A DNA stretch of 36,593 bases from a virus (IMGVR_UViG_3300048839_001022:1-36593), one strand, 5' to 3'; positions 2,903 through 32,922 are shown, numbered from the stretch's first letter. Notes: a model not told the origin generated them from the letters alone. Program-made: numbers and translations.

Positions 2903-3922
2903 TTAAGCTCTACGTCCGTAACGCTTTTTGCCCAGCTCCACTTTTTCACGAGTAGACATAAAATCAGTCTCAATACTGTATGTCACACCGTTTTCGTGCA
3001 GCTCTTTTACCATTTTAAAGTTTTTATCTGTCTCTTCATCTTCAAGAGAGTTTTCTTTTTTCTCTTCTTTTTTATCTTCACAGTCTGTTTCGTTTTTCTT
3101 TTTTGATGCACGATACATCTCTTTTAGAGAAGACATTTTGATCTCTTCACCATCGATATCGACAGTAGAGCTGTCTTCATTTTCCTTTTTATCTTCTTCT
3201 TCTTTTTTGTCTTCTTCATTTTTCTTGTTGAGTTTCAGCTCCTCAACTTGTGAAACGAGGCTTTTGTTTTGGGCGAGTATGTCTTTGATCGACAGCTCTT
3301 TGCCTTCAACTTCAATTACGAAGTCTTCGCCTTCATTCGTTTTCAGCTCTTCTTTTTGTGTAAGCTTTTTAAATATTCTCCCAATCATGCCTTGGTCCCT
3401 CTTCTCGATGTTTTTATTAGTTACTATTGTAGCTGGTTCTTCGCTATTTTGCAAAGTTTGCGAATTTAGGAAAATGGGGTTATTGGCCATTTCATACCGA
3501 GGGTTTTTGACAATTGCCAAATGCTCGTATCTTCCCTCTACCAATTCTCGGTCGTATGGGACATTGTTCAGCGTTCCACCTTCGAGGTATTTATCGCCAA
3601 ACCATGCTGTGCTGACACCCCAACCGTTTTGTAAAAGGTTCACTCCCTCTTGATCGTCAAGCACAAATTCTGCAATCCAAAGATCGGAATACTCGTCGTA
3701 TTCCATTGTGCTGACACGTCCCACGATTTTAACACGGTCAATCGTCTCATCTGTGAGCAGCTCTTGAGGATGATCGATAACAACCGGGATGCCCATTGCT
3801 GATTGTGACATTTGCCACAATGCCTCTTGCGAAACCAAGATTGTTTCGTTTGGATAGGCGCAAAGTCCCTTACGCATACATGCCATTCGGATTACTTTGC
3901 CTGTCACCAATTTTTCACTCAT
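2903..3922 (-). CDS. prohead protease/scaffold fusion (DUF2213-like)
   Basis: GIPVVIDHP, GVSTAW, YEHLAIVKNPRY; acidic/Lys-rich coiled C-terminus; likely start ATG 3922. Confidence 0.8.
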   Translation of the reverse strand: MSEKLVTGKVIRMACMRKGLCAYPNETILVSQEALWQMSQSAMGIPVVIDHPQELLTDETIDRVKIVGRVSTMEYDEYSDLWIAEFVLDDQEGVNLLQNGWGVSTAWFGDKYLEGGTLNNVPYDRELVEGRYEHLAIVKNPRYEMANNPIFLNSQTLQNSEEPATIVTNKNIEKRDQGMIGRIFKKLTQKEELKTNEGEDFVIEVEGKELSIKDILAQNKSLVSQVEELKLNKKNEEDKKEEEDKKENEDSSTVDIDGEEIKMSSLKEMYRASKKKNETDCEDKKEEKKENSLEDEETDKNFKMVKELHENGVTYSIETDFMSTREKVELGKKRYGRRA

Positions 3923-3923
3923 A

Positions 3924-4670
3924 TCAAAACCCTTCAAAATTTATGGTGCTGCATGTTGTGTGGATCGGGAGATACTTTGCCCATTTCAGTCTGATGTATG
4001 TCTCACTTTGATAATAACACGGTGGTAAAGTTTTTAAAGATGAATTATGAGAGCATGGTGCATCTATAACATAAGATTTTTTCCCGAGCTGTTTCGCTTG
4101 CAAGCAAAGATCAGTCCCAAAGAGGTGATGGTGCGGTATTTTTTCATCGAATGTTATTGCAGGATAGAGGGTTTTATTGAAAACGATGAGCAATTCGTCA
4201 AGAGTTTGAACAGCTGTCGGTTTGAAATCCTTGGTAATGAGCGGATAACCCCGATCTATGACATTAGCTGATAAGGTCCCCATTTTGGTCTTGCCAGCCA
4301 CTCCTAACACCGCCCAAGGGCAATCAGAGAGCAGATGAAGCGCCCGATCCAAGGACGGGAAAAAATCATCATGCAGCACAACATCCTGATGAACAAAAAT
4401 TACAATATCATTTTGACATGTTTTTAAAGATTTATTATATGCTTTCTTAACATTATTATTACAATCTTGGCTTTTAATAACTTGCAGGTCATGAAGCATG
4501 ATATCTTTCGAATGCAGCAAGTTATCGTAAAGCACTTGAGAATTATTTGAGCAGCAAACTATCGAATAGATTTTAAGTCCCTCCCATGAGATAAAACCTT
4601 CGGCCCAGCCTAATGCCGGAAAACCGTTAGGCTCAGTGGATCGAGCCCACGGGCCATCAAATAATCTCAA
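3924..4670 (-). CDS. GT-A fold glycosyltransferase (Glyco_tranf_2_5-like); true start uncertain (TTG 4670 or ATC 4571)
   Basis: YSIVCCSNN, KAYN, IFVHQDV, LGVAG, VQTLDELL, HLFGTDLCLQA motifs. Confidence 0.8.
   Translation of the reverse strand: MRLFDGPWARSTEPNGFPALGWAEGFISWEGLKIYSIVCCSNNSQVLYDNLLHSKDIMLHDLQVIKSQDCNNNVKKAYNKSLKTCQNDIVIFVHQDVVLHDDFFPSLDRALHLLSDCPWAVLGVAGKTKMGTLSANVIDRGYPLITKDFKPTAVQTLDELLIVFNKTLYPAITFDEKIPHHHLFGTDLCLQAKQLGKKSYVIDAPCSHNSSLKTLPPCYYQSETYIRLKWAKYLPIHTTCSTINFEGF
4602..4655. other. GC-rich three-way-junction element
   Basis: GGCCC/GGGCC outer stem, AGCCTAA-CGG/CCG-TTAGGCT arm and GTGG/CCAC arm, all seen directly. Confidence 0.5.
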
Positions 4671-5009: not shown

Positions 5010-5462
5010 TTACTCCTTTATTGCTTTCAAAAAGGCAATAACCCAACAAATTTTGTCATGCGTCATTGCCGAAGTACAAATATTGACAATACCAAACTTT
5101 GGCTTGATATCGTAAAGCTGGCGATACCTGTCATCTGTGTAATACAAAAAACTGTTCTCATTCCAAAAGCTATAATGTGTAGGGTCCTGAAAAGCCCCCC
5201 GACCATCTGTTGACGGTGTTTGAGAAATGAAAATACCATTTGGTTTTAATATCCGCCAAATCTCCGACATGATGTGGATGCGCTTATCGTTATTGATATG
5301 CTCTAAAAAATCAAAAGCGACAATCTCATCAGCGCAATTATCTTGCAGAGGTATTGTTTGATTGCAATCGCACACAAGGTCAACACCATCCAGCTGTTGA
5401 CAATCGATTCCAAAATAGTCTGGCCTTTTCCTTCTCCCACAACCTAAATCAATCTTCATCAT
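5010..5462 (-). CDS. class I SAM-dependent methyltransferase (type 11-like)
   Basis: IDLGCG motif I, DFLEHI, EIWRILKPNG, AFQDPTH. Confidence 0.85.
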   Translation of the reverse strand: MMKIDLGCGRRKRPDYFGIDCQQLDGVDLVCDCNQTIPLQDNCADEIVAFDFLEHINNDKRIHIMSEIWRILKPNGIFISQTPSTDGRGAFQDPTHYSFWNENSFLYYTDDRYRQLYDIKPKFGIVNICTSAMTHDKICWVIAFLKAIKE

Positions 5463-6000
5463 CAAATTCCTCTTTTCTTATTCCGTAAAATCTCAAATCA
5501 GCCCCAAATGTTTCAATCTTATATTCGCTGAAATAGTTGTCCCAATTCAGGACAGCCAAAAGATCACTTTCTGTTATGTTTTTGTAATGATCGTTTGTAT
5601 GCGGACTATGTCCAGCCCAATGAGCTGTGGTCCCATGTTCAGGAGTGCCTGTCGATGCACAGCTGAAGGCGAACAACCCTTTTGGTTTCAAAAGATTGAA
5701 CACGATATTTTCGATTGATTGATTGAACCTGCTATCATGCTCAAAAGCGTTGGAGCTAATGATCGTGTCAAATTGAGGATCTTCGCCATACAACTCAGGA
5801 TGAAAATCGGCCACATGTTGCACAATATCAACATTGTTACCCGGCCCCATGTCTAACCCGATATATGCGCAATTCTCAAACAGATATTTGTTAGTGCCGT
5901 TGACATCGAGAGATCCAACGTCCAAAACGAATTTCTCTTTGAAATGCTCTGAGTATTTTCTTTTGACCATTTCCATGAAATCTTTTGAAGCCTGATGCAT
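5449..6000 (-). CDS. class I SAM-dependent methyltransferase
   Basis: VLDVGSLDVNG, YIGLD, FDTIIS..AFEHD, LKPKG; ATG 6000 follows SD GAAAGGA. Confidence 0.85.
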   Translation of the reverse strand: MHQASKDFMEMVKRKYSEHFKEKFVLDVGSLDVNGTNKYLFENCAYIGLDMGPGNNVDIVQHVADFHPELYGEDPQFDTIISSNAFEHDSRFNQSIENIVFNLLKPKGLFAFSCASTGTPEHGTTAHWAGHSPHTNDHYKNITESDLLAVLNWDNYFSEYKIETFGADLRFYGIRKEEFDDED

Positions 6001-6011
6001 TTTGATCCTTT

Positions 6012-7016
6012 CTACCATCCTACAATTGGCTGTGCTATACATCTACAATTGAAATCTTCGCCGGGGTGTGCCCTACGTCCTGATTTCTCATCTACAATGG
6101 GTGGATGATCCCAATCAATAATTTCTCCATCCAGCTCATTATGTCTTTCTCTAACTTTGTGATCTCCTACCGTAACCCATTTGTATTGATTGATGCCATA
6201 CTGTTGATATTGAGATTTTTTAAACTTGGTTGTCAATAGTGCCGTTTCTTGCCTTGCGATAAACTTGGCCCTCGTTTTTGAGATGTTGAGTTCAGCCATG
6301 ATTGTTTTTTTGACCGTATCTCTTGACCTGCCGTCTAAAATGAGAGTTTGAAGTTTGCTCCTCAATTTTTCTACAATATCCTGTTCAAAATTTTCAATTG
6401 CCTTGGTCGCTCCCTCTTCAAACTCCCTCAAGAGCTTTTTCCGAATAGGAAGGTCAATTGTGGTTAGGTAGTCCTTGGAGATCTTCTCCAACCCAATTTC
6501 ATCAAGTTGAGGCTGAACAGCAACATTTTTTCGAATAGTGCGCTTAAACTCCTTGCTGACACGATCCATGGTTGACACACCCATACTTTGGATTGTCATG
6601 TTTTTGACTAATACAGATGTTTTGCCGACCATGTTATCAAGTTGTTTAGTGATACGCTGTTGCAACAGTTCCGACTTAGCCTTGTTGATTGCAATGGCTC
6701 TTTTCAATTTCAAAGGTAGTTTTGTCGGGTGAACAATCCATGCTCCGTCAATGAATTTTCCACCGAGGTCTTTAAGCTCCCTTGAAATCTTAGCTGAAAA
6801 GTCCCCGGTGAATTGATTGCCGTTGTATTCAATCAATCCTTTTTTCAAAGCCTCTTCTAATACTGTATCTTTTTCGTTTACCATCAATTCAATGTCATCA
6901 ATTTCCTGCATCAATGGTTTGAATACCGAAAGAAATATTGTCTTGTAAATCTCTCGATACAATGCAATATGCCACTTGTCCTGATAGATGATTGGCCTTA
7001 ATGTTTTTGTCTTCAT
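6012..7016 (-). CDS. minor head protein (SPP1 gp7 / Mu gpF family)
   Basis: RAKFIARQET, YKWVTVGDHKVRERH, HPGEDFNCRC. Confidence 0.9.
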   Translation of the reverse strand: MKTKTLRPIIYQDKWHIALYREIYKTIFLSVFKPLMQEIDDIELMVNEKDTVLEEALKKGLIEYNGNQFTGDFSAKISRELKDLGGKFIDGAWIVHPTKLPLKLKRAIAINKAKSELLQQRITKQLDNMVGKTSVLVKNMTIQSMGVSTMDRVSKEFKRTIRKNVAVQPQLDEIGLEKISKDYLTTIDLPIRKKLLREFEEGATKAIENFEQDIVEKLRSKLQTLILDGRSRDTVKKTIMAELNISKTRAKFIARQETALLTTKFKKSQYQQYGINQYKWVTVGDHKVRERHNELDGEIIDWDHPPIVDEKSGRRAHPGEDFNCRCIAQPIVGW

Positions 7017-8403: not shown

Positions 8404-9096
8404 TTATGTATCCATTTTTGTATTATTGTATTTTATGGTGCAATAACGGGAACAGCATTGTTTTAATTGATATTTGTTTACTTCAAATTCTTTGCTACAA
8501 AATTTGCATGATTTAACAATATTATCTACTCCTGACGCTCTTCTATTCCTGCTTACGCATACTTTTGAGCAAAATTGATTACAATGGTCGTGCCGTGTTG
8601 TTTTAAATTCTTTGCCGCAAAACGCACATTTTTTAGTGATCGGCACGAAATTTATATACGATAATTTTGCTATCTTTTTATGAAACCCCTGCCCTTTTGG
8701 TGAATCTCTGAACTCTCTTGAAATTCTTGTATTACTAGCAATGCCCTCTTTAGTAGAATGCCATGAAGATGCTAATGGTCTGACATTTTCAAGATGTTTT
8801 ATTTGCTTTGTTAACCTATCATCATCCCATTTATGTTTTCTCATATGGTCTTTATGCGTAAGCATCTCAAGGTTTTCAATTTTATTATTTGCTGGATCAC
8901 CATCAATGTGATGTATGTGCATCCCACTTGGAATTCCCCCGTTATAAAACTCCCATATTTCCCTGTGCATCCAAATAACTCTTCTTTTTAAATTTTCTTG
9001 CTCCCTTCTGTAAAAATAGGATTTCCGTTTTTTACCCTCTGTATTCGTACAGCGTATATATTTTTTCCCATTCCATTCTATTACTTCTTGCGCCAT
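8404..9096 (-). CDS. free-standing HNH homing endonuclease with C-terminal Zn-ribbon repeats
   Basis: MHREIW...HIHHIDGDPANNKIENL; two CxxC...CSxxC units; inserted between terL and portal. Confidence 0.88.
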   Translation of the reverse strand: MAQEVIEWNGKKYIRCTNTEGKKRKSYFYRREQENLKRRVIWMHREIWEFYNGGIPSGMHIHHIDGDPANNKIENLEMLTHKDHMRKHKWDDDRLTKQIKHLENVRPLASSWHSTKEGIASNTRISREFRDSPKGQGFHKKIAKLSYINFVPITKKCAFCGKEFKTTRHDHCNQFCSKVCVSRNRRASGVDNIVKSCKFCSKEFEVNKYQLKQCCSRYCTIKYNNTKMDT

Positions 9097-9108
9097 CGGT
9101 TACACCTT

Positions 9109-10305
9109 TCACATAACCCCTTCATCATATATAGACTTCTTGTGCTGAATAAGAGAATTTAGCGCATACCTAACAGCGTCAATTCCGTGATCGAAGTCGT
9201 CGATCACAATAGGCAATACTTCATTTGTTCGCTTATCAACTTTAAAAGAAAACCGCTTAAACTCTTCTATTATATTTTTGCATGAAGGATGTATTATAAC
9301 TTTTGAAAACCCTTTTATGTACTCGATACCATCAATATTTGAGTTTGTCCACTTTTTAGCTGATTCAATATTCCAACCTTCATTTTTCAGGTAAGAAATA
9401 GTCTCTGGCCTAGCGCAATCAGCTTTTATTTTATAATACTCATTTGCTATGACTTTTCTTATTAACTTCCCAAGATCATTAATCTCAACATGATAACCAT
9501 ACGCTTCAGCATCTATATAAAGATTTTTATCTCTTATGAAACATCTAATCACAGTTGATGGATCGTTGGCAAAACCAAAGTCCATACCATGATAAAATGC
9601 TTCAACGCCCTCAGAGCTAAACTCCTCCACCACGAATTTACCTTTGAAGACTTGGGCGTCTGAAACTGTCCTTAGCTCTCCTTCCCAAACGTGAAGATAT
9701 TTTTCAAAGTCTGTCGCTCTCAAGTGAAGCCGTTCTTTTTCGAGAATCTCAGGAAAATAGTCATTGTCGTTATAATTCACCTTGACGACTAATGCATTAT
9801 GTTGACCTTTGACAATAAACATTTGATAGACTGGATCATCCTCATTGGTAGGGTTGAATGTGATGATTAGTTTACTGCCTGGCTTTCGAATTGTGGGTAT
9901 GAGAATATCCCAAGAGGATTGAGATACTTTATCAGCTTCTTCAATCCATACGATATCGACACCCTCGGTTGACTTTACCGATTCAATGTTATGAGCGAGC
10001 CCTTTGAAAATAAAAACAGACTTATTGAATTTGCACTCAATAGAAGCTATTTTTATTGAAAAATACCTTTGGAGACCGTAGAAATAAATGATCTCTTTGA
10101 GCAGCGTATAAACTGATTCTGTAATTGAGTTTTGAAGCTCCCTTGCACACAGTATTTTCGTTGTTTTTGAAAGTGCTGTATAGACTAAAAATCTTGCAAT
10201 AGAATGAGATTTACCGCTACCACGTCCACCGTAGTAAACATAGTAACGATAATCATCAAAAAGATCGTCGAATATTTCAGGCACGACTATTTCAATGTTA
10301 CTCAT
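9109..10305 (-). CDS. terL: terminase large subunit, PBSX family
   Basis: YGGRGSGKS Walker A, VWIEEA Walker B, TFNP, GMDFGFANDP and DHGIDAVRY nuclease motifs. Confidence 0.95.
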   Translation of the reverse strand: MSNIEIVVPEIFDDLFDDYRYYVYYGGRGSGKSHSIARFLVYTALSKTTKILCARELQNSITESVYTLLKEIIYFYGLQRYFSIKIASIECKFNKSVFIFKGLAHNIESVKSTEGVDIVWIEEADKVSQSSWDILIPTIRKPGSKLIITFNPTNEDDPVYQMFIVKGQHNALVVKVNYNDNDYFPEILEKERLHLRATDFEKYLHVWEGELRTVSDAQVFKGKFVVEEFSSEGVEAFYHGMDFGFANDPSTVIRCFIRDKNLYIDAEAYGYHVEINDLGKLIRKVIANEYYKIKADCARPETISYLKNEGWNIESAKKWTNSNIDGIEYIKGFSKVIIHPSCKNIIEEFKRFSFKVDKRTNEVLPIVIDDFDHGIDAVRYALNSLIQHKKSIYDEGVM

Positions 10306-10676
10306 TTATCTGCTTTTTTATCTGCTCGCCTTGCTGCGAATGTCACTACTGGAATAGTAGAATCTTGGCTTTGCGTGTCTGTCGTTATTTTATCAGACCA
10401 ACCGAGAATGTTTTTTAGCGCAAAAATAAGGACAGCTGTATTGCCCTCATCAATTTTCTGCCATGTTTTTCTTCTTAGACTAATCTTGCCTTTTGCCGCC
10501 TTTTGTCGCCATAGATCCGCAAAACCCTTTTTTTTCTCAGTTACGCATCGCCTTTCAATTGTATCCTCAGAGACATTAAAAAAACTTGCTATTTCTTCTA
10601 GCGTACAATGCATAGCGCAAAGTTTATCAAATTGATTCCAATCAATGGGAATTTTAGGTCTACCAATTTTAGACAT
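10302..10676 (-). CDS. terS: terminase small subunit (HTH)
   Basis: GRPK, TLEEIASFFNVSEDTIER helix-turn-helix, LIFALKNILGW; ATGA-coupled to terL; SD GAGGAG. Confidence 0.75.
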   Translation of the reverse strand: MSKIGRPKIPIDWNQFDKLCAMHCTLEEIASFFNVSEDTIERRCVTEKKKGFADLWRQKAAKGKISLRRKTWQKIDEGNTAVLIFALKNILGWSDKITTDTQSQDSTIPVVTFAARRADKKADK

Positions 10677-11394
10677 ATGACTCCTCAATTACATCATTTC
10701 TATTTGTATTTTGATTTTTTGATTGGAGCGTATCGGTCAGACTTGCACTGCCTTCTGCTGCTTGGAAAGCAACCACTTCACTATCAAAGCTTGATACGCG
10801 TTTTGGATAGGGCTTTGCCAATTTCAATATCTTTGTTTTTATATCATCTGTCAATGGCATTAAATATATATGTTTTTTAGTAGGTTTCCTAGTTTTTATA
10901 TTGTTTTTTTGTGCAAATTTAAAACCTGCTTGCCCAAATTTAGCACCTACACTTCTATGGTGTGTCCATTTACCATTGATATAATATTCAAGTGTTCCAC
11001 CAATTTGAGATAATCCAATATATATCCAATTTGTAGCCTGATATATTCCACCATGATGGTTTTGCCTTGGATCTGCAAAACTTACAATAATCTTTAATCC
11101 TTCACATTTTTTTTTCAAATATTTTATCGCTATACTTAAAATTTTAGATACATGATTTTTATGCTTGTTCAAAGCAATTCTAGTTAATTCACATCCTTCT
11201 ATAGTTGTTAATCCATATGGGGTTAACAAATTATTGCAAGCACCCCTAGAAAACAATACCACCCCTATAAACTTATTTTCCTCCCAAACGCCTATTTTAA
11301 CAATTTTCCCTGCTGGCATACATTTGCTATAATGCCAATTTTCACAAGCATACTTTGCAGCTTCATGCGTTGCCCAATCGATCTTAAGAGTCAT
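10669..11394 (-). CDS. mom: Mom-family (GNAT-like) DNA adenine modification protein
   Basis: ENWHYS, GVWE..FIGVVLF, ELTRIAL, VSFADPRQNHHGGIYQATNWIYIG, KPYPK; ATG 11394 ATGA-coupled to the ParB-like gene. Confidence 0.8.
   Translation of the reverse strand: MTLKIDWATHEAAKYACENWHYSKCMPAGKIVKIGVWEENKFIGVVLFSRGACNNLLTPYGLTTIEGCELTRIALNKHKNHVSKILSIAIKYLKKKCEGLKIIVSFADPRQNHHGGIYQATNWIYIGLSQIGGTLEYYINGKWTHHRSVGAKFGQAGFKFAQKNNIKTRKPTKKHIYLMPLTDDIKTKILKLAKPYPKRVSSFDSEVVAFQAAEGSASLTDTLQSKNQNTNRNDVIEESYV
10724..10799 (-). tRNA. non-canonical tRNA-Gly(TCC)-like RNA embedded in the mom coding sequence
   Basis: GCGTATC/GATACGC acceptor stem, T discriminator, CCA; D stem GCTT/AAGT; anticodon stem GTTGC/GCAGC with loop TT-TCC-AA; T stem GGCAG/CTG(A)CC with loop TGCAAGT; exactly 76 nt. 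Confidence 0.82.
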
Positions 11395-11861
11395 ATTTCT
11401 AACCCACAATGTGGACATATTTTTTTCTGTTTTTCATCAAGTTTCCCTTGATCATCTTCTGTACCTGGATCGAAGTCTTTATCATCTAAACTAAAATCAC
11501 AAAAACCAATATCCCCGATATCAAAGTCCTGCTTGTCAAGCCAATCAAGCTGCTCTTTAAGGATATCATCGTCCCACTCTGCAAGCTCGGAAGTTTTGTT
11601 GTCAGCCAGCGCAAAGGCCATTTTACCTAGCTCATCAAGCTCAGTTACCACAGCATTGATATGCGTCCAGCCGAGTTGTTTTGCAGCTTCCAGAGTGCCA
11701 TTACCAGCTATCACAACATTTTTTGAATCGATCACAATAGGTTTTTGTTGCTTGAATTTAGCGAGCGAGCCCTTGATTGCCTTTAAATTTTTATCGCTGT
11801 GCTTCCGAGCGTTGTTCGGATCAGCTGCAAGCTTTGATATTTCTACCTTAATAACGTTCAT
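11391..11861 (-). CDS. ParB/Srx N-terminal domain protein with C-terminal CPxCG
   Basis: DPNNARKH, PIVID...VIAGNGTLEAAK, ALADNKTSELAEWD, CPHCG; likely start 11861 after SD GAGAGGA. Confidence 0.85.
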   Translation of the reverse strand: MNVIKVEISKLAADPNNARKHSDKNLKAIKGSLAKFKQQKPIVIDSKNVVIAGNGTLEAAKQLGWTHINAVVTELDELGKMAFALADNKTSELAEWDDDILKEQLDWLDKQDFDIGDIGFCDFSLDDKDFDPGTEDDQGKLDEKQKKICPHCGLEI

Positions 11862-11890
11862 ATCATTCCTCTCTTTGCCCATGTCTTTTT

Positions 11891-14108: not shown

Positions 14109-15312
14109 CTCCGATGCCGTAAAACCCCGTTCTTCAGGACGGGGATATAAGGCATCCGCCTGAGCTTCTGTGAGAACAGAAGCGATTCTCTGGTTGTCTC
14201 TCTATACATTATAATATATACAACTGGGCAGGGAGAAGACAATGATTAAGACCTATAAATATCGAATCAAAGACGCATCAGCAGCTAAAAAGCTAAAGGC
14301 AGCGGCGAGAGCCGTAAACTTCGTGTGGAACTACTGCAACGAAATATCTATCTATGCGATCAAAAATAGATCAAAATTCCTGTCTGGATTCGACCTATCA
14401 AATCTGACAAAAGGAAGCTCAAAAGAGCTATTCCTTCACTCGCAGACGGTTCAGGCCATTTGTGAGGAATATGCAACCAGAAGACAAAAAGCCAAGAAAA
14501 TTAAACTTAGGTGGAGAGGAAAGCGATCCCTTGGGTGGATACCTTTCAAGAAAACAGGAATTAAAATCGTTGGCGATAGCGTGACATACTCTGGAAATAC
14601 GTTCAGACTTTTTCTATCAAGAGATATCCCTACTACAATCAAGACGGGATCTTTCAGCCAAGATGCAAGAGGACGGTGGTATTTCAATGTTGTGTGTGAA
14701 GTGGAGGAACATATTCGCTCGGCTGCTGGTGAAGTAGGGATTGATCTTGGTCTGAAGGATCTAGCAAATCTTTCAAATGGCCAAAAATTTAAGGCCAATA
14801 AATACTATCGTAAATACCAGCGCATCCTTGCCTTGTCGCAAAAAGATGGTAAGAAAAAGAGAGTGAAGGCAATCCACGCAAAGATTGCAAATAGCAGAAA
14901 AGATGAGATTCAAAAGATGAGTCATGAAGTAACAAGAGACTTCAGCCTCATCTGTGTGGGCGATGTATCGTCAGTCAAACTTGCAAAAACAAAGCTCGCC
15001 AAAAGCATCTATGATGCCTCTTGGTCGCAGCTCAAGTCCTGCCTCGAATATAAATCGATTGCGAGAGGCGGGATGTTAGTCATAGTGAATGAACACATGA
15101 CAACCCAAACCTGTTCCAACTGTCTGTCTACAGGCGTTGGCGCACCGAAAGGAGCGAAAGGGCTAGGGATAAGAGAGTGGGTGTGCAGCAGTTGCGGATC
15201 GACACACGACCGTGACACAAATGCGGCACTAAACATTCTCCGATTGGGAAGACAATCGCTGGGTCTAAAGTGATCTAGGAATCCCCTTCCTTCAGGGAGG
15301 GGAGGGCTTCAA
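14109..15312 (+). mobile_element. non-autonomous IS200/IS605-family (IS1341-like, tnpB-only) element
   Basis: Left-end hairpin CCCCGTTC-TTCA-GGACGGGG preceded by AAAA; right-end hairpin CCCCTTCC-TTCA-GGGAGGGG preceded by GAAT and ending TCAA; (T)TTAT target motif at 14104-14108; no tnpA. Confidence 0.88.
14242..15273 (+). CDS. tnpB: RNA-guided endonuclease TnpB
   Basis: KTYKYRI, VWNY, VGIDLGLK (RuvC-I), TTQTCSNC/WVCSSCG Zn finger, HDRDTNAALNI (RuvC-III). Confidence 0.95.
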   Translation: MIKTYKYRIKDASAAKKLKAAARAVNFVWNYCNEISIYAIKNRSKFLSGFDLSNLTKGSSKELFLHSQTVQAICEEYATRRQKAKKIKLRWRGKRSLGWIPFKKTGIKIVGDSVTYSGNTFRLFLSRDIPTTIKTGSFSQDARGRWYFNVVCEVEEHIRSAAGEVGIDLGLKDLANLSNGQKFKANKYYRKYQRILALSQKDGKKKRVKAIHAKIANSRKDEIQKMSHEVTRDFSLICVGDVSSVKLAKTKLAKSIYDASWSQLKSCLEYKSIARGGMLVIVNEHMTTQTCSNCLSTGVGAPKGAKGLGIREWVCSSCGSTHDRDTNAALNILRLGRQSLGLK

Positions 15313-15438: not shown

Positions 15439-16893
15439 ATGCGCTTTATTTTGCTGTCTTTACTACTTTTATCATCAACATTATTCGGTAACACCCTATA
15501 CGATGGAGAGTCCAAACTTTTCGGGGGATCTGTTAAATGGGATAACAACGGATCGATCCTGACTCAATCTCAGGAGATCCCCTTCTCCCCTCCAAATCAT
15601 CTCAGGGTGTCTTTAGTAAATGTAAACTACTGGGGAGCGGCAGGATATGTCATTGAAAAATGGAAGCCGATCAACTTCATTACCTACCACACTCTTAACC
15701 TTGTCATGAGAGCCGACAATAATGTGACGGTTGGCGTCCAGCTATTTGATGCTGGGAACAAAAGTAGCCCTGCTGTTAAAGTCGATCTGTCTTTCAGTCA
15801 CCAGCTTATCAGCATCCCAATTTCGATGTTTAGCGATATTGATTTGACAAAAGTCACTGCAATTATCTTTTCTGTCTCGACACAAAAAGCTGAAAAGAAA
15901 TATTTAGTTGATATCGATAACATTACAATTGAGCGTGAGATCCTGCCCCCGGATGATGAGGATGATATCGATCCCCCGAACCAAGGTGTCATGAACACCA
16001 AAGGCCGCTCCCTGTATGACTCATGCAACAAGAAGGTTGTCCTGCGTGGTGTCAATCATATGACGTGTTACACGGATTGGGTAGGGACACCGAGGGACGG
16101 TGAGCCGATGTTCACTGAGATTGCTAAGACAGGGGCAAACTCGGTCAGGATCGTCTGGACTTACTCAGAGAATACCACCCCTGCGGAGCTAGATAGGGCG
16201 ATCACCAATGCCGCTAAAAACCAGCTTATCCCTATGGTTGAGATATTGGATCAAACATGCGAATGGTCGAGAGCTGCTTTCGACAAGGTTTTGTCGTGGT
16301 GGTTACAGCCTGACATAGTGAAGGTGATGAAAAAGCATGAGAAGTATGTACTTCTAAACTTTGCTAATGAAATGGGAAATGGCGATACGACTCTTGAAAA
16401 TTACAAATCAGAGTACAAGCGAGTCATTGAAAAGATGAGGGGAGCAGGGTTAAGAAGCACTATCGTTATCGATGCCCCTGGCTGTGGACAGAATGAAACA
16501 ATCATGCTTGATGCTGCAAACTATTTAATCGAGTCTGATCCTCTTAAAAATGTAATGATGAGTTTGCACCTGTGGTGGGTTCCCCAAGACAAGGACCGTA
16601 TTACAAACCTGATGACTCGTGCACACAAATTAAACATCCCTTTAGTGATCGGTGAATTTGCCGGTGTTGCTGTTGATTGTAAGACGCCTACTTTTTACTC
16701 ACATCTTTTAAAAATTGCTCAAGATACTGAAACCGGCTGGATGCCATGGAGTTGGGATAAATCAAATGGGTGTCAAGCGCATAGCATGACTAAAGACGAT
16801 ACCTATTCGGGTCTGTTCGGATACGGCAAAGATGTTGCAATTGATGACCCCAATTCAATCAAAAATACCAGCGTCCAATCCACATGTTTTTAG
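15439..16893 (+). CDS. secreted GH5 glycoside hydrolase (beta-mannanase-like) with N-terminal CBM-like domain
   Basis: Signal peptide; acidic/Pro linker; LRGVNH, KTGANSVRIV, NFANE (acid/base Glu), VIGEF (nucleophile Glu), GWMPWSW. Confidence 0.88.
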   Translation: MRFILLSLLLLSSTLFGNTLYDGESKLFGGSVKWDNNGSILTQSQEIPFSPPNHLRVSLVNVNYWGAAGYVIEKWKPINFITYHTLNLVMRADNNVTVGVQLFDAGNKSSPAVKVDLSFSHQLISIPISMFSDIDLTKVTAIIFSVSTQKAEKKYLVDIDNITIEREILPPDDEDDIDPPNQGVMNTKGRSLYDSCNKKVVLRGVNHMTCYTDWVGTPRDGEPMFTEIAKTGANSVRIVWTYSENTTPAELDRAITNAAKNQLIPMVEILDQTCEWSRAAFDKVLSWWLQPDIVKVMKKHEKYVLLNFANEMGNGDTTLENYKSEYKRVIEKMRGAGLRSTIVIDAPGCGQNETIMLDAANYLIESDPLKNVMMSLHLWWVPQDKDRITNLMTRAHKLNIPLVIGEFAGVAVDCKTPTFYSHLLKIAQDTETGWMPWSWDKSNGCQAHSMTKDDTYSGLFGYGKDVAIDDPNSIKNTSVQSTCF

Positions 16894-18010: not shown

Positions 18011-19198
18011 TTATTTTTTATCGGCAGCCAAGACTTTTTCTTTCACGCCTCTGATATTCTTAGAGACGTTGACTGTCGTAGAAGCTTTTGCTGTACCGCA
18101 CTTGTTTGTTGCATACAGCGTAAGGGTTTTAGTAATTGCTGGCCTAAAGTCAATCATCGATACTTCGGGTTTGCCGCCATTGTCGAATGGTGGGCTTGCT
18201 GTCCAGTAGTAAGATGTGTCTTTTCTTGGCTGCATACCAATTCTTACTGTCTGTCCCGATCTAATCCAGATTGAAGGTCCGAAGCCAGTTGATGCAACTG
18301 GCTTTGGTTTGCAATCCGGATCTGGCTTAGGATCAGGGTTTGGATTGGGATCTGGATCAGGAGTTGGAGTATCGTCGAAAACGACGTAGTTCGCCCACTC
18401 TCCTACTCCGTTAGCATTCCACCTGATTTTCATGTACCCCGACTCTCCCCAGCTTCCCCACGAGTTCTTCAATATCCAGTATTGCCCTGCATCAGACCAG
18501 CCCACAAGGTTCACAGCGTGATTGAGTTGGCGTGATCCTGAGTCTTGGAATACTCCTCCCGTATATCTTGAAAAAGCATCGTCGGCAGCCACTCCCACAC
18601 TTACAATTCCGTAGCGATATATAGCGGCTTTTATCTCATCAATTGATGGTTTTTCACCGCCCGGTGTGTACGACCATTGTTTAATTCTGAGTTGATGATT
18701 GAGTCCTGACTTGCATGGTTCATCACTTGCACTATACGGCCATGCGGATCCTGCAACACCCCCAAAAGGACTCATGTGGCGGTTGTAGTCGAAAAATCCA
18801 CCGTTGCACGTCCACTCCCCCGGTTTTGTACACGAAAGGATATGCTGTTCGCTGGTATCATACTCTTTCCCGGTTTGATATTTGAATGCGTCCTGCACAG
18901 TGGCGGACATGGAAAATGCCCAGCAACTTCCGCAACTTAACTGGTTCTCAGGTGCTTTATATCCACCTGCTTTTACCCGAGCATCAAACTCAGCAGGGAG
19001 ATCACCACGAAGTCCATCTCTTGCAGATTTTACGTTGGTCGGATTGAAGTCTTTTGGAACAACAAGACCTGTTGAATAAATTTGCCCGTTCGCACCCAAG
19101 AATGATACGGGCTGTTCTTTTTTCTCATTTGTTGTTGAGCACGATAAACTCATGACAAGCGGCAAAAATGCTAAAAATAGTTTTCTGTACCAATTCAT
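18011..19198 (-). CDS. papain-like C1A cysteine protease, probable lipoprotein, with Pro-Asp linker and C-terminal Ig-like domain
   Basis: Lipobox-like MSLSC; QLSCGSCWAF, SEQHILSC, NHAVNLVGW, WILKNSWG. Confidence 0.92.
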   Translation of the reverse strand: MNWYRKLFLAFLPLVMSLSCSTTNEKKEQPVSFLGANGQIYSTGLVVPKDFNPTNVKSARDGLRGDLPAEFDARVKAGGYKAPENQLSCGSCWAFSMSATVQDAFKYQTGKEYDTSEQHILSCTKPGEWTCNGGFFDYNRHMSPFGGVAGSAWPYSASDEPCKSGLNHQLRIKQWSYTPGGEKPSIDEIKAAIYRYGIVSVGVAADDAFSRYTGGVFQDSGSRQLNHAVNLVGWSDAGQYWILKNSWGSWGESGYMKIRWNANGVGEWANYVVFDDTPTPDPDPNPNPDPKPDPDCKPKPVASTGFGPSIWIRSGQTVRIGMQPRKDTSYYWTASPPFDNGGKPEVSMIDFRPAITKTLTLYATNKCGTAKASTTVNVSKNIRGVKEKVLAADKK

Positions 19199-20157: not shown

Positions 20158-20763
20158 TTATTCTCCTTTTTTAATGAGTAATTCTATTGTTTTTTCAGGA
20201 GATCCCGTAGTTTTTCTTATGAATTTATATTTTGACCTTTTGATTCCAAGTTTTTCGCATATTTGATTTATAGTTAAATACTCGTCAAAAAAATCATATT
20301 TTTTTGCATGAAGTTTTTTATGCTCGGATGCATTAGTTAAAAGTAAATTTTCTATTCTGTTATCATCTTTTATACCATTGATGTGATGAACATGCTCATT
20401 TAATTTTAATTTTCTTCCTATATGTTTTTCCATCACATAACGATGTTCTGATAAATGTCTTTTTTTGCATTTTTCATGACCTTTTACCCATATTTCGCTA
20501 TACCCACGATGACTAACCTTATATTTTTTTTTGCTATAACCTCCATTTTTTTGACTATGGATTGCAAAACACGGTCTGGAGCAATATTTAGCTCCTCCTT
20601 TTCTTTGTTCACATTTAAAAGATTTAAATTCTTTGCCACAATTCAGGCAATTTTTAGTTTCTGATCGACAATTTTTTTGGTTATGAAAACAATTAAGAGA
20701 ACAATATTTGGATTCAATTCTCCCAAAATATTCGATACCGCAGTAGGAACAAATTTTTTTCAT
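20158..20763 (-). CDS. HNH homing endonuclease with N-terminal Zn-ribbon repeats
   Basis: CxxCG...KYCS x2; EHRYVME...HVHHINGIKDDNRIENL; ATG 20763 after SD AGGAG. Confidence 0.88.
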   Translation of the reverse strand: MKKICSYCGIEYFGRIESKYCSLNCFHNQKNCRSETKNCLNCGKEFKSFKCEQRKGGAKYCSRPCFAIHSQKNGGYSKKKYKVSHRGYSEIWVKGHEKCKKRHLSEHRYVMEKHIGRKLKLNEHVHHINGIKDDNRIENLLLTNASEHKKLHAKKYDFFDEYLTINQICEKLGIKRSKYKFIRKTTGSPEKTIELLIKKGE

Positions 20764-20817
20764 AAAACTCCTGGCTGTTGCTAATTTCATTTTGGGAGTT
20801 TTTGCGAAGATTACAAT

Positions 20818-20845
20818 AAAAAAAGGCCGCATGATGACTGCGACC
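20818..20845 (-). terminator. intrinsic terminator
   Basis: GGTCGCA-GTCATCA-TGCGGCC followed by T7. Confidence 0.65.
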
Positions 20846-20883
20846 TTCTCTAACAACGAAACGACTATATCCTGTCAACACTG

Positions 20884-22875: not shown

Positions 22876-23895
22876 ATGAAAATAGGATTGGGCCTCATTG
22901 TCAAGAATGAGGAAATAGACATTGTGACATGCTTAAACTCTTTTTTGCCATTAGTCGACTGTGTGTGTCTTGTTGATACTGGATCAACAGACCGAACGTT
23001 GGAGATCGCTTATAAGATCATTGGAGCATCTGGAAAACCGAACAGGGTTATCACTTTTATCGATGCGAACGATTCTGAAGGAAGGCTGTGCGATTTTTCA
23101 GCAGCCCGGAATGTCTACATCCGAGAACTCGAGTCTTTAGACATGGACTACATTCTTTCAATCGATGCTGATGATACCTTCATAGGTCCCGCAGATCTTC
23201 GGTCCTACCTGTTAGACCACTCTGACATTGACGTTCATGGCCTTAAGTATTTTTTAAATGATGAGGTTTCGATCAATACCTATCGCCTTTGGAAAACCGG
23301 GTTTGGGATCAGATACGAGGGCAGGGTGCACGAGTGCATTACAATCCCTTGGGATCGGGCAAAAGTGAGCGAAGGCGCTATAACGATCAAACACAATCCA
23401 ACCTCCCATGAGGGCCAAGAGCACTCTGGACAGCGCAACATGCGCATACTCCGAAAAGAGATCTACCCTTCTTTCAGGGCAATGTTTTACTGGGCCAATG
23501 AGAACGTGGATGCTGGGAATTATGAGGAGGCTGTCAAATGGTATCTCGAATATATCAGGCGGTCAAAAGCAGGTGAAAAGCCTTGGATGATTGAGCTTGC
23601 CCATTGTTACTTCAGGGGAGCCCGTTGGTTGCACCACTTGAAGCGAACCAATGAGGCCGAGCGACTCTGTCTTGAGCTCCTCTCTTGGGACTCCAGCTGG
23701 TCAGAGGCTTGGTGCGAATTGGCTTATATCAATCGACTTCGAGGCGACTTTGAGAAGATGAAATTTTTCGCAAAAAAGGCGCTGGATAACAAATATGTCC
23801 CGAGGCTTTTCAGTGAGCCTGATAAATACACCACGACTCCAGCAAACATGCTCATGATTGCAGCGATTCATGAAAAAATTGGTAAAAAAGAGTAG
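22876..23895 (+). CDS. GT2 glycosyltransferase with C-terminal TPR repeats (protein glycosyltransferase-like)
   Basis: IVKNEE, VDTGSTDRT, DFSAARN, SIDADD, YEGRVHE, RN..IL, YEEAVKWY TPR. Confidence 0.88.
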   Translation: MKIGLGLIVKNEEIDIVTCLNSFLPLVDCVCLVDTGSTDRTLEIAYKIIGASGKPNRVITFIDANDSEGRLCDFSAARNVYIRELESLDMDYILSIDADDTFIGPADLRSYLLDHSDIDVHGLKYFLNDEVSINTYRLWKTGFGIRYEGRVHECITIPWDRAKVSEGAITIKHNPTSHEGQEHSGQRNMRILRKEIYPSFRAMFYWANENVDAGNYEEAVKWYLEYIRRSKAGEKPWMIELAHCYFRGARWLHHLKRTNEAERLCLELLSWDSSWSEAWCELAYINRLRGDFEKMKFFAKKALDNKYVPRLFSEPDKYTTTPANMLMIAAIHEKIGKKE

Positions 23896-26895: not shown

Positions 26896-27765
26896 TTACT
26901 CCTTCTGCTTCATGTACTCGATATAAGCTTGCAACTGTTCGGCTTCCGATAACTGCTTAGTTTGAGATACTAAGTGCCTGACTTTTGATCGAGTCACCAA
27001 AGCATGCTTGATACCTAATTTTTGTAGTTCGTCGGAATACACGTTATCAGAATACCAGAAATTCACGGTCTGACAAAGCTTCATCCCTTTTTCGTAGAAA
27101 ATAGATCGTCTAGCGACAAGGCACCAACCACACACTTCGGCACCGATCCTGTAACCTTCAATCATGTCTACATCGGGTATTCCACCGTACACCCGGCTAT
27201 GCCACTCCCATTGATCATTCCACGGAGAAAAAGACTCCATGTCCTTGCGCATGTTATGAGCGATCACAATCTCCTGCATCCAACCCGGCTCAAAAATCAA
27301 ATCATTGTTGGCAAAGACTACCCATTTGTTTAAACTCGCAATTAACCCCAGATTAAGAGCCCGGTTATAACAAAAAACGTCATTACCGTAACGAATAGTT
27401 TTTTCCTGACCGCACTCTTTAATCTCGGGGCCTGACTCCACGACAATGACATTAAATTTTATTTTCTTTTCTGACGCTCTTAAACTATCAATGCAATTTT
27501 TCAAAAGTAGGAAATGTTTTTCGTCTTCTGTCTTTGAGACAATAATGACGTCTACTGTTATTTTTGTTATCAAGAATTTCTCTATTTTCCCCCTGTCAGG
27601 ATACCAAGTTTGATCCGTTGGAACTTTCATCAAATCATCACCGCTTGTCTGCATCCGCTGTAACACCCTTCTATTGTTTTCTCGAATTATTTTTGATGTA
27701 TCCTGCACAAATAACCTCTTATTTGCTATGATTGATTTAGCAAATCTGTTATTATTGCCGTTCAA
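26896..27765 (-). CDS. GT2 glycosyltransferase (start uncertain)
   Basis: VDVIIVS, NVIVVES, FCYNRALNLG, VFANNDLIF, FWYSDN, VRHL. Confidence 0.85.
   Translation of the reverse strand: MNGNNNRFAKSIIANKRLFVQDTSKIIRENNRRVLQRMQTSGDDLMKVPTDQTWYPDRGKIEKFLITKITVDVIIVSKTEDEKHFLLLKNCIDSLRASEKKIKFNVIVVESGPEIKECGQEKTIRYGNDVFCYNRALNLGLIASLNKWVVFANNDLIFEPGWMQEIVIAHNMRKDMESFSPWNDQWEWHSRVYGGIPDVDMIEGYRIGAEVCGWCLVARRSIFYEKGMKLCQTVNFWYSDNVYSDELQKLGIKHALVTRSKVRHLVSQTKQLSEAEQLQAYIEYMKQKE

Positions 27766-29569: not shown

Positions 29570-32922
<3,353 letters not shown>

Follow-up and report, generated by a model that had tools for sequence, protein, structure and literature searches.

The Mom protein of phage Mu, a GNAT enzyme, moves glycine from Gly-tRNA(Gly) onto N6 of adenine with 6-NcmdA as product (Silva 2026, PMC13219725). 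According to the same source, Mom drains Gly-tRNA(Gly), and co-opting host translation in this way possibly comes at a cost. In staphylococci, EF-Tu sequesters ordinary Gly-tRNA from the transferase, and dedicated non-ribosomal tRNAs are, in the account given there, well documented only for staphylococcal cell-wall synthesis (PMC7826273). A 76-bp tRNA-Gly-like 'pseudo-tRNA' locus within the initial 150 bp of a mom homologue was described for Dehalococcoides ssrA islands by McMurdie et al. 2011 (PMC3146451); in the passages on this locus the RNA is given no function and used as a primer target, and Mom is predicted to be methylating. Here, we analysed a viral stretch of 36,593 nucleotides (IMGVR_UViG_3300048839_001022:1-36593, hereafter the window; the 36.6 kb record is estimated to be 45% complete), in which a Mom-family gene (10669..11394, minus strand) harbours a conserved, non-canonical tRNA-Gly(UCC)-like RNA of 76 nt (10724..10799, minus strand) in its 3' coding part. 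We think it rather probable that this RNA is a dedicated, EF-Tu-evading, non-ribosomal glycyl donor for Mom.

Compared by description, the Dehalococcoides locus resembles the window element in its length of 76 nt, its DCC anticodon, its 5-nt anticodon loop and its location within a mom open reading frame (ORF) beside a gene for a ParB-domain protein (PMC3146451). It differs in lying at the mom 5' end on integrative elements, whereas here codons 199-224 of a phage gene are occupied and the RNA bridges to terS, the gene of the terminase small subunit. One and the same T-arm motif retrieves 5'- and 3'-type copies. An earlier note on this stretch, made from its sequence alone, could not say whether a mom/tRNA overlap had been described before: the 5'-end form was already contained in the report of McMurdie et al., while no prior account of the 3' phage form was found. 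Our literature search, to which subscription papers were mostly inaccessible, found no account of the 3' phage overlap, the breadth of the family or a donor role, and the searchable text of the Mom paper (PMC13219725), its preprint and two text supplements says nothing of a tRNA that is embedded in mom or encoded by a phage (an image supplement is unsearchable).

Mu Mom (PF25680; PDB 8bv8; PMC13219725) shares its family, its catalytic residues and, if the chemistry is the same, its use of Gly-tRNA(Gly) with the protein studied here, but it ends at PYPK, has no tRNA-like sequence behind it and uses host isoacceptors, whereas in the window the RNA follows PYPK. The staphylococcal non-proteinogenic (NP) tRNA-Gly species (NP1-3; Rietmeyer et al. 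2021, PMC7826273) have in common with our element an acceptor and anticodon of the type read by glycyl-tRNA synthetase (GlyRS), a TGC T-loop, a 6-bp stem with a 5-nt loop, an apparently weak 51-63 pair and a consumer of GNAT fold. As described, they are chromosomal, free-standing and confined to staphylococci, keep U8 and serve peptidoglycan via FmhB, FemA and FemB. In contrast, the RNA analysed here is viral, linked to mom and dual-coded, has a bulged T stem as well as variants whose D arm is reduced, and would supply DNA modification. The likeness is probably convergent; by analogy the RNA may work in a similar manner, but it is not a member of the staphylococcal group. A further nested arrangement, tRNA-Sec in the 3' end, or C-terminal extension, of selB (Mukai 2021, PMC8124441), concerns different genes and organisms and a tRNA that serves translation, while the present RNA is apparently built to avoid it.

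A tRNA-like cloverleaf within the mom reading frame

The element runs from 10799 to 10724 on the minus strand, with sequence, strand and position exactly as given in the earlier note, and lies wholly within the mom ORF, from the second base of codon R199 to codon Q224. The cloverleaf is the minimum-free-energy and the centroid fold alike (-22.7 kcal/mol, with a free UCCA end), and its stems retain pair probabilities of 0.69-0.89 when folded in 200 nt of mRNA context. Fold, homologue alignment and our own covariance model together delimit a 7-bp acceptor stem, a D arm, a 6-bp anticodon stem with a 5-nt loop, a T stem with a bulged A and a TGC loop, U73 and an encoded CCA. The sixth anticodon-stem pair, 32-38, had been overlooked in the earlier note. 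Canonical tRNAs have U8, A14, G18G19, TTC in the T-loop, a 7-nt anticodon loop and a T stem without bulge. With these the window element shares the four-stem cloverleaf and the CCA end; it carries G1-C72, C2-G71, G3-C70, the anticodon TCC and U73, keeps U33 and A37, has a C51-G63 pair, and departs from the canonical form by A8, U14, A18G19, the T-loop TGC, the paired positions 32-38 and the A bulged from the 3' strand of the T stem. All features that had been listed for the cloverleaf beforehand (identity pairs, TCC, U73, CCA, A8, the missing D-loop GG, TGC and the bulged A) were found in the sequence.

Common tRNA finders, proposed in the earlier note as a check, miss the element: ARAGORN predicts 0 tRNA genes in the window, and the Rfam tRNA model (RF00005) reaches only 21.3 bits against a cut-off of 29 bits (E 4.6), with nothing else from Rfam matching the window at E<=5, while our covariance model R1, built with the window sequence included, scores the copy at 64.8 bits. 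The folding energy is unremarkable by itself (z -1.52; 16/200 shuffles were equally stable), and the GC content amounts to 50% in the element versus 32% in the surrounding gene. A pattern describing its geometry, derived from the element so that the match in the window is given by construction, occurs once on the two strands of the window and in 0 of 20 Markov-1 shuffles; hence the element is not a chance product.

The host gene encodes 241 aa, of which a core of residues 1-198 ends with PYPK and a 43-aa tail is read through the RNA, which begins in the codon following residue 198. The ORF matches Pfam PF25680 with 158.4 bits (cut-off 27.1) and phrog_1384, and phmmer aligns it to PDB 8bv8 (E 5.8e-8). 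Eight residues named as essential or important in Mu Mom (Silva et al., PMC13219725), H58, Y59, R111, S124, D149, R151, Y159 and W181, correspond to H21, Y22, R72, S83, D108, R110, Y118 and W143, all identical, in a mapping counted by hand on the phmmer alignment to 8bv8, a chain that carries S124A. Across 48 homologues, H21, Y22, R72, D108 and Y118 are invariant, S83 is found in at least 90% and R110 is variable. From family membership and the catalytic residues we infer that the gene performs glycine chemistry of the Mu type.

Conservation of the RNA and its linkage to mom

Homologous loci were taken from the best 80 of 588 viral and the best 80 of 173 genome candidates encoding a relative; four without the C-terminus were dropped, and together with the window the set comprised 152 unique loci. 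A parser based on pairing geometry only scored at least 30 directly after PYPK in 108/152 loci, compared to 13/152, 7/152, 3/152, 13/148 and 4/145 at five control offsets. The final filter demanded 7/7 acceptor pairs, at least 4/5 T pairs and GC...GC ends: 115 candidates passed on pairing and two of them (L134 and L141) were lost for lack of these ends, which left 113 loci with 109 distinct RNAs. A covariance model built from 51 copies recovered six further RNAs at the same position, plus one at a second copy of mom, so that about 33/152 loci were left without the RNA. A comparison of 20 homologous loci with Rfam returned no further RNA family.

G1-C72 and C2-G71 are present in 109/109 RNAs, although these ends were demanded by the final filter at the expense of two candidates. 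U73 was found in 112/115 candidates, an encoded CCA in 92/115 and the bulged A in 105/115, while CC stands in the predicted anticodon loop of 108/109 RNAs; in the full-length copies, G1-C72, C2-G71, C35, C36 and U73 are invariant (38/38). Parsing around this CC yielded the anticodons TCC (48), ACC (42), CCC (8) and GCC (4) in 102 RNAs and failed for 7/109. About 60/109 RNAs measure 67-71 nt and have a shrunken D arm, whereas 39 are 76 nt long; in a Mom tree obtained by a quick method, full-length and short forms are interleaved, so that neither can be traced to one origin. Conservation does not extend to the usual tertiary contacts. AA occupies positions 8-9 in 85/109 RNAs, T-loop position 55 is G in 90/109 and G51-C63 is retained in only 4/109. 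Positions 32-34 and 38 of the anticodon loop are highly variable.

Could the element be an ordinary translating phage tRNA-Gly of odd appearance? Near-canonical relatives exist, since ARAGORN calls a tRNA-Gly(TCC) at the same spot in 5/60 loci and annotated tRNA-Gly genes stand beside mom in cultured phages, and the window copy has U33 and A37. Yet the window copy stays under the Rfam cut-off with ARAGORN silent, U8, TTC and G51-C63 are mostly lost in the family, U33 occurs in only 22/45 full-length copies, the anticodon loop has 5 nt in 82/102 RNAs and the ACC anticodon is common, all of which makes an ordinary tRNA very unlikely.

In a gap-free alignment of 38 copies of 76 nt, 96.4% of cells pair and 16/22 pairs show compensatory changes, counts which overstate independent events because of the kinship of the sequences and which include acceptor- and T-stem pairing that had belonged to the selection, a limit that tells against the donor proposal as well. 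None of the measures was reached by any of 500 shuffles, and slid alignments pair to 34-45%. Outside the demands of the parser, the D stem covaries, its pairs 11-24 and 12-23 showing 13 compensatory changes apiece, and so does the 32-38 pair, which is formed in 35/38 copies and has 15 such changes. Covariation, a conserved NCC anticodon, U73 and CCA among Mom homologues, which the earlier note had set as a computational test, were all recovered, and the conserved 76-nt cloverleaf inside the Mom-family ORF is confirmed as real.

The same data bear on the view that the structure is a decayed tRNA pseudogene, a remnant of an attachment site or a by-product of protein conservation. The low z of the folding energy fits such a view, as does a copy in phage P8625 that is possibly such a relic. 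However, compensatory changes occur in all four stems, conservation is independent of frame and stop position, the overlying peptide is predicted to be disordered and the annotated flanking genes include no integrase. We therefore hold this explanation to be extremely unlikely; a remnant of an attachment site or a decayed pseudogene is largely ruled out by covariation.

AlphaFold2 models the core of the protein with confidence and assigns a pLDDT below 50 to residues 201-235. Among homologues, the ends of the RNA fall in all three codon phases, which means that there is no conservation at the level of the peptide. The stretch over the RNA is thus probably a passenger rather than a working part of Mom, and a functional tail peptide was rejected on account of the differing frames and the predicted disorder. 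The reading frame itself is kept: 98/109 mom genes read through the RNA and 11/109 stop before or inside it, with stops inside the RNA in 10/109 cases for the mom frame versus 47 and 75 for the other two frames. In 87/97 loci the mom stop lies at -35 to +15 nt of the next start, in 52 of these at -1, -4 or -8. Among 40 loci tested for the gene after mom (the first-listed of 103 viral loci), this gene is terS in 27 and terL in 1; in 2 loci it belongs to other families and in 10 it has no match. In the window, terS (10302..10676, minus strand; phrog_309, E 1.8e-11) overlaps the mom end by 8 nt with its ATG; ahead of it, the mom tail contains GAGGAG, which resembles a Shine-Dalgarno sequence. The open frame and the placement of the stops suggest that the tail frame is likely kept open for translational coupling to terS across the stable structure.

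This arrangement would also suit a cloverleaf that acts mainly in cis as an mRNA processing or regulatory element, at which a cut by RNase P or RNase E leaves a stop-less mom message, which would cap Mom levels, and releases or stabilises terS-terL. The RNA lies between mom and terS in most loci, cutting would remove the mom stop wherever the frame is read through, and P8625, which has no detectable Mom, retains the RNA within a short ORF that is coupled to the following gene; the nesting of tRNA-Sec in selB provides a precedent hypothesis (PMC8124441). A cleavage site would, however, not require invariant C35/C36 or U73, the same RNA is found at the mom 5' end, wholly after the stop and in tandem elsewhere, and the candidate internal promoter described below would bypass the mom mRNA. 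We thus regard a mainly cis-acting role as unlikely, while an effect on mRNA processing may be real as a side effect of a glycyl donor.

In the reverse direction, two exact T-arm/3'-end patterns scanned in IMG/VR returned 240 loci (215 distinct), which partly overlap with the forward set. Among 173 assessable matches, 171 stand beside a Mom gene on the same strand, within about 100 nt. The 215 loci comprise 131 with a close Mom directly upstream, 26 with a more distant Mom subfamily upstream, 14 with Mom downstream and the RNA at its 5' end, 2 without Mom within at least 600 nt and 42 with too little flank. All ORFs tested from the distant-upstream and downstream groups belong to PF25680 (37/37). 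As for the two exceptions, one has mom 1.3 kb upstream past a glycosyltransferase and the contig of the other begins 760 nt upstream. A 7/7 acceptor partner was found upstream in 195/210 matches and CC in the loop in 184/195 of these, neither of which was part of the search pattern. For 5'-type copies, the mom ORF covers the RNA in 13/13 cases. One RNA family accordingly accompanies at least three Mom subfamilies at either gene end; restriction to the mom 3' end was ruled out by 5'-embedded and post-stop copies. With the two narrow patterns alone estimating about 480 and about 310 stretches, the family in IMG/VR amounts to several hundred or more. It is mostly missed by ARAGORN and Rfam and explains the odd C- or N-terminal extensions of many Mom proteins.

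The linkage is also informative on the idea that the RNA, once produced and charged, serves not as the substrate of Mom but as a decoy or reserve in phage-host conflict, be it with toxins that cut or acetylate tRNAs, with GlyRS or with T-box sensors. The variable loop positions 32-34 and 38 fit an escape from anticodon nucleases, Mu Mom does well on host tRNA and the P8625 copy has no mom. A general decoy, though, gives no reason for the proximity to mom, at either end and in three Mom subfamilies, and we consider a decoy quite improbable.

Some loci deviate in their arrangement. Two mom genes lie one behind the other in L048 (L048:1072-1763), and only the second of them is followed by the RNA; in L114 a canonical tRNA-Met directly follows the element (3151-3224). 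Tandem RNA copies occur at L115:970-1108 and in L201, where they are apparently translated through in frame. L188 and L420 show the order mom, GT-B-like glycosyltransferase, RNA, small ORF in terminase position and terL-like ORF, which suggests a further DNA-modification step.

A putative glycyl donor for Mom

In our proposal, the RNA would be made late, from the parB-mom-terS mRNA and/or from an internal promoter, and be matured by host RNases. Host GlyRS would charge it, because the determinants of this enzyme (G1-C72, C2-G71, C35, C36 and U73; PMC10464925) are kept; U73 moreover shields Gly-tRNA from DTD (PMC6097841). The charged RNA would be kept out of translation because it has lost the T-loop TTC, U8, the 7-nt anticodon loop as well as G51-C63, and the T-stem bulge, situated in the helix read by EF-Tu, may add to this exclusion. 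Summed T-stem contributions to EF-Tu binding amount to +0.1 kcal/mol for the window copy with C51-G63, the bulge being outside the model, compared to -1.1 kcal/mol for S. aureus G49-U65/C50-G64/G51-C63 and +0.6 for the NP set (values from Table 2 of PMC3239215). Mom would then move glycine from the charged RNA to adenine of new phage DNA. The disordered tail peptide would be a by-product, its frame remaining open so that ribosomes can traverse the structure and start terS.

Several observations weigh against this proposal. Mu Mom can use each of the three E. coli tRNA-Gly isoacceptors but not Gly-tRNA(Ala) (PMC13219725), and an RNA of this kind is absent from Mu; a private donor is therefore dispensable for the chemistry. 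The roughly 33/152 homologues lacking the RNA stem from Bacillota, Yersiniaceae and Pseudonocardiaceae prophages and from a few other sources, and the Mom tree needs 8 changes for 31 RNA-less rows. Five RNA-less genomes hold elsewhere only weak matches to the model (37-39 bits in 4) or none (in 1). No copy was found near mom in Mu, phiEf11, JeffCo, ASh-2020a, Alsa_2, Riggi, PAN70, JD024 and Melnitz-3. Conversely, the complete Verrucomicrobia phage P8625 has a copy, with two mismatched stem pairs, and no detectable Mom. Only 5/329 archaeal genomes have a Mom match, and in 3 of these 5 no copy was found; a third methanogen mom has no copy. The GlyRS of Lactobacillus (LpGlyRS), as characterised in PMC10464925, needs the D and T arms, barely charges a D-armless tRNA and favours a purine at position 4; the D arm is shrunken in the short copies of our family, and most copies, including that of the window, have a pyrimidine at 4.

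Taken together, conservation and covariation as well as the published use of Gly-tRNA(Gly) by Mu Mom favour the translation-evading Gly-tRNA donor that the earlier note had proposed, and the absence from Mu and from about 33/152 homologues shows that Mom does not generally depend on the RNA. Within these bounds, we consider a dedicated donor the probable function of the RNA. More tentatively, and with considerable doubt, most environmental Mom systems might be two-part systems in one gene, in which the enzyme prefers or needs its own orthogonal tRNA via the bulged T arm, many phages have reduced this RNA to a nearly D-armless form of 67-71 nt that bacterial GlyRS still charges, a hidden promoter resides in Mom codons and the discriminator follows the host domain. 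Such a system would amount to a private route of aminoacyl supply for DNA hypermodification, encoded by the virus and overlooked by tRNA finders.

If a donor role holds true, the RNA would be the way in which many Mom phages avoid both the translation cost and the competition with EF-Tu. It would constitute a second natural case of a dedicated non-ribosomal tRNA, here viral and for DNA modification, and it would offer natural minimal, EF-Tu-orthogonal GlyRS substrates. The published in vitro Mom assay is applicable, and cultured phages carry the RNA.

Among RNA-less loci, the mom genes of the Bacillota prophages L087, L092, L095, L096, L099 (about 3100-3200), L082, L090 and L154 stop at PYPK. 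A different conserved hairpin set follows these genes, with no Rfam match in the three that were scanned (L082, L087 and L154).

Regarding the internal promoter, a candidate sigma70-like site (TTGACA, 17 nt, GATATT; 10/12) lies within mom at 10826..10854 on the minus strand and ends 27 nt before the 5' end of the RNA. In the window region, 9 such sites were counted versus 9.3 expected, i.e. a single site is not significant alone. Sites with at least 9/12 precede the RNA in 26/109 homologues versus 2-8 at control offsets, and TTGAC is found in 29/99 loci with the RNA versus 1/32 without, although kinship inflates such statistics across homologues. The Leu codon is CTT in 38/83 cases versus 111/494 for other Leu-before-G codons; GAC after CTT was not significant (p 0.07). 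Located in the 'MPL(D/T)' codons, the sigma70-like site may provide a separate transcript of the RNA. Given this candidate promoter 27 nt ahead of the RNA, and the free-standing copies that lie past the mom stop in other loci, the RNA need not be made at the expense of mom mRNA.

In cultured phages the element takes several forms. Salinibacter phage B2_17 has a copy, annotated as tRNA-Gly, just behind the mom stop, and in Psychrobacter phage Y8A the interval from the mom stop to terS contains two short, free-standing tandem copies that are unannotated (L423:1462-1529 and 1534-1602). An unannotated, unbulged copy lies over the mom stop of Arthrobacter phage Zartrosa, and in Microbacterium phage Appa a near-canonical tRNA-Gly(CCC) with a G7-A66 mismatch directly follows mom on the opposite strand (L163:2154-2228 (-)). 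The P8625 copy resides in a 64-aa ORF behind a ParB-N6/N4 methyltransferase gene and is coupled to the next gene (L426:1392-1586); it is either a relic of mom replacement or points to a mom-independent role. Two related genomes among the archaeal ones carry a copy with A73, the discriminator of archaeal tRNA-Gly, a match that represents one event at best, while a contig labelled as Woesearchaeota has U73. These methanogen provirus copies (L131:3103-3182 and L174:1295-1374 (-)) combine an enlarged D loop with an anticodon loop that is ambiguous: in L131 it is read as Val-TAC by ARAGORN, whereas the family motif suggests ACC.

Genomic surroundings of the element

The window holds a single copy of the tRNA-like element. 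Upstream of mom, a ParB-N-like gene (11391..11882, minus strand; PF02195, 26.9 bits) overlaps the mom start with its stop (ATGA), and downstream of terS the gene of the terminase large subunit, terL (9109..10305, minus strand), identified by Pfam and PHROG profiles, places the locus in the context of a late packaging operon. Four genes at 3924-4670, 5449-6042, 22876-23895 and 26896-27765 comprise three family-2 glycosyltransferase-like genes and one methyltransferase gene, two of the four being located within the head module between a Mu-F-like gene and the capsid genes. Further genes at 14242-15273, 15439-16893, 18011-19198 and 29570-32587 encode an IS605-type TnpB, a GH5 cellulase-like protein, a papain-family peptidase and a collagen-repeat fibre protein. 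HNH genes are located at 8404-9096 and 20158-20856.

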